A DNA stretch of 63,287 nucleotides, filler included, from Collodictyon triciliatum (Eukaryota), in the NCBI GenBank assembly GCA_043381765.1. It is 9 parts of 9 records of this genome, joined end to end, with 100 filler letters (N's around TTAATTAATTAA, not from the genome) between each part and the next. Parts side by side here need not be neighbours in the genome. Positions count along the whole stretch, not along the records: positions 21,654 to 28,744 come from JBHJMP010004070.1; 8 more parts are not named here. One strand, written 5' to 3'. Each line of letters begins with the position of its first letter. Position 1 is the stretch's first letter. This document shows positions 21,990-23,007 of this stretch, one piece after another. Below the pieces are notes generated by a model, which was not told where the DNA came from, did not search any database, and was given only the letters and a program-made list of their open reading frames with translations. The position numbers and the translations under genes are program-made.

Positions 21990-23007
21990 ACACGGTGTTT
22001 ACATATCTCCAAATGGATGTCTATACCCGGTTTGGAATTGTACTTGGCCGATGGAGGTCGTTTTGTGTCAAGAATGCGGAAAAGAAAACATCGGAGGAGT
22101 GAATCATATCCCAGTAATAATGATAATAATAATAGTAATAGTTGTAAACTGATTGTTCAACAAAATCCATTTTTTAAATCATCCTATGAATAGCTTACGG
22201 GACACATGAGAGTGGTGGAGGATGGATTCACTGAGCGGCTTCCTTATCCGTGTGATCGTATCTTTTTTAGTAATATCGTTGAAAAGGCACCAAAAGGATA
22301 TGAAGTTCCATCGTCCTGCATGGATCGAAAGGAGTATACTGAAAGAAATCTCCCAACAATAGCTTTTCGTATCATGCGAATTGTGCTACACTCCCTTTTA
22401 ATGGTATCAAGTTGGGACTCTGAACTTAAAATACCCGTTTCATTATCTCCGGAGGAGCTCTTCGAAAAGTTTGGGAAAGATTGGGATGCCTTGAGAGGAA
22501 TCCTACAGAAGAGCGATGACGATGTCTTTATCTTGGTCAATTATGCAATCTCCGAATTCAAAGGAAAAGCTGGCGCGGATTTTACCGTTCTAGAATCATT
22601 TGAATCCCGAAAACAATATGAATCCCATCTCTTGGATATCGTTTTGGGAGAAATTTCAAAAAATCCTCTTGTGTACATCGGGAGGGCCAAACTAAAGGAT
22701 GATTTTTTCGATGTTGAGATGCAAGACAATATACCACCCACTGACGAATATTGGAGAAAAAATGCATCTTCAGAATTACCAAATCTGTTTAGACAAAGAA
22801 GGGGACTAGATCTGGAAAGTATCCATGCATTTCTGTCCTCCCAGGCTGGATCTCTATCAAAGTATCCAACTCTATCCTGCATAATGGAGAATGAAAGAAA
22901 GCTGAAAGCGTTACGGTAAGCACTTGTGTATCAATCAATTATGTTTATTTTATAAGAAAAAAATATGAATCATACTCGTGCATTTGTACTGATTACTAGC
23001 ATCATTT

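Follow-up and report, generated by a model that had tools for sequence, protein, structure and literature searches.

RNF213 is known in humans as an innate-immunity and moyamoya-disease protein. The RZ finger that it carries is an E3 domain of an unusual kind, able to attach ubiquitin to substrates other than proteins, and its mechanism is still under study, as described in the parts of the sources drawn on here (PMC11549300; bioRxiv 10.1101/2025.10.14.682297). In the account given by the first of these, the metal ligands of human RNF213 are C4505, H4509, C4525 and C4528, while C4516 is the proposed nucleophile and H4537 the proposed general base (PMC11549300). The same source reports that ubiquitylation of the pathogens tested was lost with H4509A, a substitution predicted to disrupt metal binding, and with C4516S, and it presents LPS ubiquitylation and the coating of intracellular pathogens as a property of mammalian RNF213 (PMC11549300).

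A second protein with a finger of this family is ZNFX1, an SF1 helicase in which the finger lies in the C-terminal part together with a Miz domain. According to the portion of the study consulted, the isolated ZNFX1 RZ domain depends for its activity on its counterparts of the ligand His and of the nucleophile Cys, which play the same roles as in RNF213; the study traces this domain back to choanoflagellates (bioRxiv 10.1101/2025.10.14.682297).

RNF213-like giants in protists are already in the databases. They include proteins of Naegleria, such as the 4930-aa P0010 of N. lovaniensis, which has an RZ finger and a collinear tail and no RING by Pfam, and two uncharacterised proteins of the freshwater flagellate Diphylleia rotans, P0001 (4817 aa) and P0002 (4572 aa), which are complete paralogues derived from EukProt transcripts. 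A literature search at the level of titles and abstracts found no paper on RNF213 homologues in protists.

Here we describe a locus in a window of 63,287 nt (the whole stretch of DNA that was analysed), which by its sequence we take to be the 3' end, or tail, of a giant RNF213-family gene. Its closest counterparts are the two Diphylleia proteins, which have the same finger – with Ser and Cys at the first two zinc ligand positions, 72% identity across the finger, and a collinear tail – but which are complete and include an AAA core. Of the present gene the sequence covers the tail alone, and the Diphylleia proteins belong to another organism or are other paralogues. Vertebrate RNF213 (mysterin; structures 6tax, 7oik, 8s24 and 9g08, and the fish proteins P0003 and P0004) also has a finger followed by a C-terminal region of similar length that aligns end to end, with the nucleophile Cys, the CxxC pair and the general-base His in register. 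It differs in its ~22% identity, in having the canonical C...H where this gene has S...C, and in having a RING domain. The Naegleria P0010 finger is likewise of the canonical C...H form and scores 56.7 bits against the RZ profile, versus 34.4 bits here. ZNFX1 shares the finger family, but in the present gene the finger is followed by a long tail of the RNF213 type.

Identification of the RZ finger

An earlier note on this DNA had proposed that an unannotated exon encodes an RNF213-like RZ finger with altered zinc ligands, a reading to be dropped if the RZ-type profile gave no hit. The profile does hit. PF20173 (ZnF_RZ-type) matches residues 8-48 of a 60-aa frame with 34.4 bits (E 1.7e-8), above the curated gathering cutoff of 27 bits, and this frame was the only one of the six scanned to match the family. 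The finger peptide itself is translated straight from 22000-22113 (+). The pattern C..C.{2,8}GG..H has a single occurrence in the six frames of the window, at the same exon.

A phmmer search of the PDB with the finger frame returned ten sequences at E<=10, nine of them RNF213 chains with the finger in register, though these matches are weak when taken alone (E 0.39-4). An AlphaFold2 model of the 47-aa finger, built from a 3-row alignment, had a pLDDT of 44.3, too low for the model to be of use.

The fingers of this gene and of its two Diphylleia relatives are atypical for the Pfam profile, scoring 34.4, 35.5 and 22.9 bits where the canonical Naegleria finger reaches 56.7. The lowest value is that of the P0001 finger (residues 4091-4137), which falls under the cutoff of 27, and the precomputed domain list for this protein gives AAA only; automatic annotation thus misses its RZ finger.

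A nine-exon model of the 3' end of the gene

We built an exon model by hand from open frames and splice sites, and then mended it against homologues (Table 1). The frame of the RZ exon is open over 21970-22152, with codon 22111-22113 directly followed by the GT donor. Exon 2 begins right after an AG, and the junction at 22113/22194 is in phase 0. The in-frame junction, together with a tail collinear with homologues, bears out the earlier proposal that the RZ exon is spliced in frame to exons resembling the RNF213 C-terminal region. The bounds proposed for the exon stood in part: the end at 22113 was upheld, whereas the start at 21990 (after AG 21988-21989, giving 124 nt) is rivalled by one at 21971 (after AG 21969-21970, giving 143 nt). 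This second AG may be the acceptor, since similarity to homologues already begins at 21973.

Table 1. Coordinates of the RZ finger positions, exons, linkers and repeat in the 63,287-nt window.
Feature	Position	Strand	Basis or remarks
Ser codon TCT, first zinc ligand position (human C4505)	22006..22008	+	PDB alignment
Cys codon TGT, second zinc ligand position (human H4509)	22018..22020	+	PDB alignment
Cys codon TGT, proposed nucleophile position (human C4516)	22039..22041	+	invariant in 3 clade sequences
CxxC pair, third and fourth zinc ligand positions (human C4525, C4528)	22066..22077	+	alignment
His codon CAT, proposed general base position (human H4537)	22105..22107	+	alignment
Exon 1, RZ finger	21971..22113 (alternative start 21990)	+	PF20173 34.4 bits; tblastn; GT donor 22114
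Exon 2	22194..22915	+	240 codons + 2 nt; E 2.8e-34 to P0001 residues 4133-4378
Exon 3	23121..23370	+	tblastn to homologues and spliced reading
Exon 4	23503..23619	+	tblastn to homologues and spliced reading
Exon 5	23784..24046	+	tblastn to homologues and spliced reading
Exon 6	24291..24376	+	tblastn to homologues and spliced reading
Exon 7	24539..24825	+	tblastn to homologues and spliced reading
Exon 8	24995..25151	+	tblastn to homologues and spliced reading
Exon 9	25288..25388	+	TAA stop 25386-25388, then AATAAA repeats
Linkers	7094-7193, 14287-14386, 21554-21653, 28745-28844, 35940-36039, 43125-43224, 50310-50409, 57491-57590		
Join of two unrelated scaffolds	21554..21653		N44-TTAATTAATTAA-N44; GC 49.8% left, 35.2% right
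(ATT)n(GTT)n microsatellite	21737..21838		upstream of RZ exon; sequence

Read from 21973, the nine exons give 707 codons with zero internal stops and end in TAA. All eight introns are of the GT-AG type and measure 80-244 nt, GC content is 42.1% in exons versus 25.9% in introns, and seven of the eight joins are gap-free against homologues. We also considered a genetic code in which TAA and TAG are sense codons, which would have accommodated the 51 stop-rich nucleotides at 21919-21969. This was rejected, because the 707 codons run without an in-frame stop under the standard code; an in-frame TGA in intron 1 further rules it out.

The gene is cut off on its 5' side. Only 336 nt separate the start of the scaffold from the RZ exon start at 21990, and this interval contains an (ATT)n(GTT)n microsatellite that is presumably intron sequence and a likely cause of the assembly break. 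No exon with canonical splice sites was found upstream in 21654-21970, no AAA+ core or RING is visible on the scaffold, which begins just upstream of the RZ exon, and tblastn with residues 1-4085 of P0001 gave no significant match in any of the nine scaffolds. The absence of the upstream part of the gene is a limit of the assembly rather than a biological feature.

One upstream segment resembles a part of the homologues. A two-Asp motif about 17 residues ahead of the finger is kept in the Diphylleia, Naegleria and fish proteins, and the peptide VTDDSKKK, which the window encodes at 21895-21918 (+) in frame with the RZ exon, resembles this double-Asp motif. Four in-frame stops (21919-21969) part it from the RZ exon, there is no GT ahead of the first stop, and there is no AG from the microsatellite to 21914. 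As it fits no canonical exon, the VTDDSKKK stretch may be a chance resemblance or a relic.

These observations bear on the possibility that the locus encodes no protein, being either an artefact of assembly or a gene copy in decay, with the sequence here a fragment of a pseudogene stranded on a small, unplaced scaffold. The truncation by the scaffold end, the lack of a visible canonical upstream exon and the motif-like segment severed by stops would all fit such a fragment, as would the outcome of a sequencing-run search in which no RNA run carrying the locus was listed. The same search listed 10 DNA runs with a small share each (0.05-0.12). Decay is, however, difficult to reconcile with 707 stop-free codons and eight out of eight canonical introns, or with the gap-free joins and the strong contrast in GC content between exons and introns, and we judge this explanation very unlikely.

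Relationship to RNF213-family proteins

Exon 2 was used as a query against 1.84 billion representative proteins. HMMER returned P0001 as the sole match (E 2.8e-34, 35% identity, residues 4133-4378 of 4817), which implies that the tail has diverged widely from its counterpart in animal RNF213. A word-indexed protein search with the same exon passed none of 1482 candidates, and trigger factor, the only PDB match of exon 2 alone, was set aside as a chance match (E 0.12).

The nearest homologue matches solved RNF213. All nine PDB sequences matched by P0001 are RNF213, with E-values of 1.3e-127 to 1.6e-120 against the solved mouse and human proteins over ~1400 residues of AAA core and the best (1.3e-127) to 6tay. 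Its C-terminal residues 4525-4782 also match residues 4326-4582 of the 6tay chain (i-E 2.9e-4). Searching with residues 4080-4817 of P0001 yielded 5 proteins among 5035 candidates: P0001 itself, P0002 (39% identity), two RNF213-alpha proteins of fish (96% coverage; E 3.5e-12 and 6.2e-7) and P0005, which stands for a cluster of 'RZ-type domain-containing' proteins from Naegleria, the longest of which has 4930 aa.

The same tail can be followed along the present locus. With P0001 as query, tblastn found six significant segments that follow one another in collinear order from residue 4086 to 4781 and lie on a single scaffold, and a weak seventh reaching residue 4804. Over the last ~720 residues of P0001 and P0002, the spliced product is collinear with them at 39.5% and 36.7% identity, respectively; as the two paralogues are themselves 39.7% identical, the three clade members are about equidistant. 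Similarity extends to more distant proteins: blastp aligned product residues 2-640 with residues 4459-5092 of the 5170-residue fish RNF213-alpha P0003 (82 bits; phmmer 2.6e-7 at Z=1e6) and product residues 3-578 with residues 4139-4764 of the 4930-residue N. lovaniensis P0010 (81 bits; phmmer 7.4e-12 at Z=1e6). The region after the finger is also of matching length, at ~660 residues here versus 668 in the human chain 9g08.

In a tree of six C-terminal regions, this gene groups with P0001 and P0002 in a clade (support 100/100) that excludes the fish and Naegleria proteins; no branching order was recovered within the three-member clade. A protist origin of the gene is suggested by its nearest relatives, which are protist sequences. 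RING domains are present in the fish RNF213-alpha proteins. Pfam searches found no RING in P0001 (E<=0.1) or in P0002 and P0010 (E<=0.01), and found AAA domains in P0001 and P0002.

RZ fingers are not confined to a single protein family, as the available part of the ZNFX1 study indicates (bioRxiv 10.1101/2025.10.14.682297), and the finger could in principle belong to a ZNFX1-like helicase or to a protein of different architecture. We attach next to no probability to this reading, because the finger is followed not by a ZNFX1-type arrangement but by ~660 residues that run collinearly with the C-terminal part of the RNF213-type proteins of Diphylleia, fish and Naegleria, and because the PDB matches are RNF213 chains, including nine out of nine for the nearest homologue.

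Altered and conserved positions of the finger

Comparison with human RNF213 showed that four of the six canonical RZ positions (four Cys, two His) are identical in this gene, the exceptions being C4505, replaced by Ser, and H4509, replaced by Cys. The change from CPNGH to SPNGC described in the earlier note is therefore real: in the RNF213 register, Ser stands for the first zinc Cys and Cys for the zinc His. The residues that the note listed as kept – the presumed catalytic Cys, the CxxC pair and the terminal His – are likewise all in register with the human protein. One additional residue lies between the CxxC pair and GG compared with human RNF213.

The altered form is shared with the closest relatives. 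A finger is present in 10 of the 11 proteins examined, five of which have the Ser/Cys form (P0001, P0002 and three P0002 isoforms) and five the canonical form (two fish proteins and three from the Naegleria cluster). Only three independent sequences thus carry the variant: this gene, P0001 and P0002. Across these three, 29 of the 47 finger columns do not vary, among them those of the Ser, the four Cys and the last His. Because it is common to both D. rotans paralogues, the Ser/Cys pair is a fixed feature of the lineage.

The finger also stands out within the protein. Its identity to each Diphylleia protein is 34/47 (72%), versus 37% and 34% for the rest of the tail, and tblastn over the RZ exon gave 71% to P0001 residues 4086-4130 and 73% to P0002 residues 3881-3925. 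Judged from these alignments, the Ser/Cys finger represents a conserved clade variant, neither sequencing error nor decay, and is the most constrained part of the protein.

Beyond the ligand positions, the small residues that surround the nucleophile in canonical fingers have given way to two clade-specific Trp that flank the Cys, and the nucleophile loop may behave differently as a result. As in canonical fingers, hydrophobic residues still alternate along the strand that runs from the second ligand position to the nucleophile Cys. Under the model in the part of PMC11549300 used here, this pattern would leave the nucleophile Cys at the end of the domain that is far from the metal.

How such a finger is held together is the point on which the explanations divide. 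That the three remaining ligand-position Cys are invariant suggests that a metal is still bound, and that the general-base His is invariant – sensible only for an enzyme – suggests that the finger is still catalytic. Serine is a poor zinc ligand, and H4509A leads to loss of activity in mammals, so a three-ligand site might not hold a metal.

The finger of this gene could then be metal-free, with hydrophobic packing that includes the two new Trp holding the fold and the Cys/His pair remaining catalytic. The Ser found at the first ligand position in three out of three clade sequences and the clade-specific Trp on either side of the nucleophile Cys would both suit such a finger. We nevertheless consider it unlikely, as conservation of the three ligand-position Cys in sequences only 34-40% identical elsewhere would be unexpected if nothing were bound.

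Alternatively, the nucleophile-position Cys could serve as a fourth zinc ligand, producing a non-enzymatic Cys4 finger with a structural or ubiquitin-binding role only. Exactly four Cys are left, all of them invariant, and the nucleophile has lost the small, flexible residues that surrounded it, as might be anticipated for a finger of this kind. It is an improbable reading in our estimation, given that the canonical pattern persists in the strand leading from the second ligand position to the nucleophile Cys and that the invariant general-base His would be needless in a purely structural finger.

We searched for the Ser/Cys finger outside this clade. Among shorter proteins (30-2513 aa), none of 20 candidates was retained at E<=0.1 with P0002 residues 3860-3960 as query. 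A scan of JGI metagenomes with the three-finger alignment returned 17 loci (L001-L017), none of which is an RZ finger; all are bacterial TruA-like genes with a GC content of 56-65% that contain the word VWNCTWP by chance. This heptapeptide sits in a conserved block of bacterial TruA-like genes from soil and other metagenomes. The variant was found in Diphylleia and this gene only, and wider published RZ alignments could already show such variants.

Genomic and environmental context

The window consists of nine pieces of ~7.1 kb joined by linkers of the form N44-TTAATTAATTAA-N44. The RZ gene is carried by the fourth piece (21654-28744), with a GC content of 35.2%; the third piece has 49.8%, and the remaining pieces 32-40%.

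The GC-rich third scaffold encodes, on the minus strand (16381-21386), LRR-Roc-COR frames at 18351-20627 and 20754-21386 and a protein-kinase frame at 16381-17592, which together look like a ROCO-type kinase gene. As it lies on a separate scaffold to the left of the join, this gene and the RZ gene are not neighbours. Other parts of the window contain further genes. An uninterrupted frame of 2066 aa at 2-6199 (+), open at the scaffold start, contains 13 WD40 repeats, which make up several beta-propellers, as well as Sel1 repeats close to its C-terminus, and by these features is a predicted giant repeat protein. Two similar sulfotransferase-like frames on one scaffold (51814-52425 and 55578-56216, both +) are probably tandem paralogues. 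A PEX11-like frame at 30935-31711 (+) and a PIGO/PIGG-like membrane frame at 11584-12573 (-) represent ordinary eukaryotic housekeeping genes.

A 151-nt contig from the freshwater metagenome X1 covers 21860-21997 at ~98% identity, differing at 2 positions and lacking one nucleotide of an A-run at 21909; it ends short of the Ser and Cys codons at the two altered ligand positions. The contig hints at a freshwater habitat for the organism or for a close relative, and the missing nucleotide hints that indels are tolerated immediately ahead of the RZ exon, as in non-coding, intron-like sequence. Runs X2, X3 and X11 gave no match to 21860-22915.

Discussion

With a little more confidence than doubt, we favour the explanation that the locus is the 3' end of a giant RNF213-family AAA+/E3 gene whose variant finger would still be a transthiolating E3 with a metal still bound. 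Ubiquitin would pass from the E2 to the kept nucleophile-position Cys and from there to the substrate, with the kept His acting as general base (Table 1). The fold would be held by a metal on the three remaining Cys – the one at the second ligand position and the CxxC pair. A fourth ligand would come from elsewhere: our guess is water or a clade-invariant His, such as that encoded at 22203-22205 at the start of exon 2. An antibacterial role and the choice of substrate are carried over by analogy from mammalian RNF213, and may or may not apply to the variant finger.

A broader and more tentative reading, which we regard as possible but doubtful, is that a deep-branching group of flagellates, comprising Diphylleia and the organism studied here, possesses RING-less RNF213-type ligases in which the RZ finger has a re-engineered metal site (three Cys and an outside ligand), or none, and would yet be an active E3 that forms an ester or thioester.

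A naturally fixed variant in which two of the four metal ligands are changed and the catalytic pair is kept offers a ready-made test of which features of the RZ finger are essential. The locus also adds to the evidence, alongside Diphylleia and Naegleria, for RNF213-type machines in free-living protists. If the broader reading is true, the canonical C-H-C-C site would be dispensable for RZ catalysis, and RZ-based ubiquitin defence would be older than animals.
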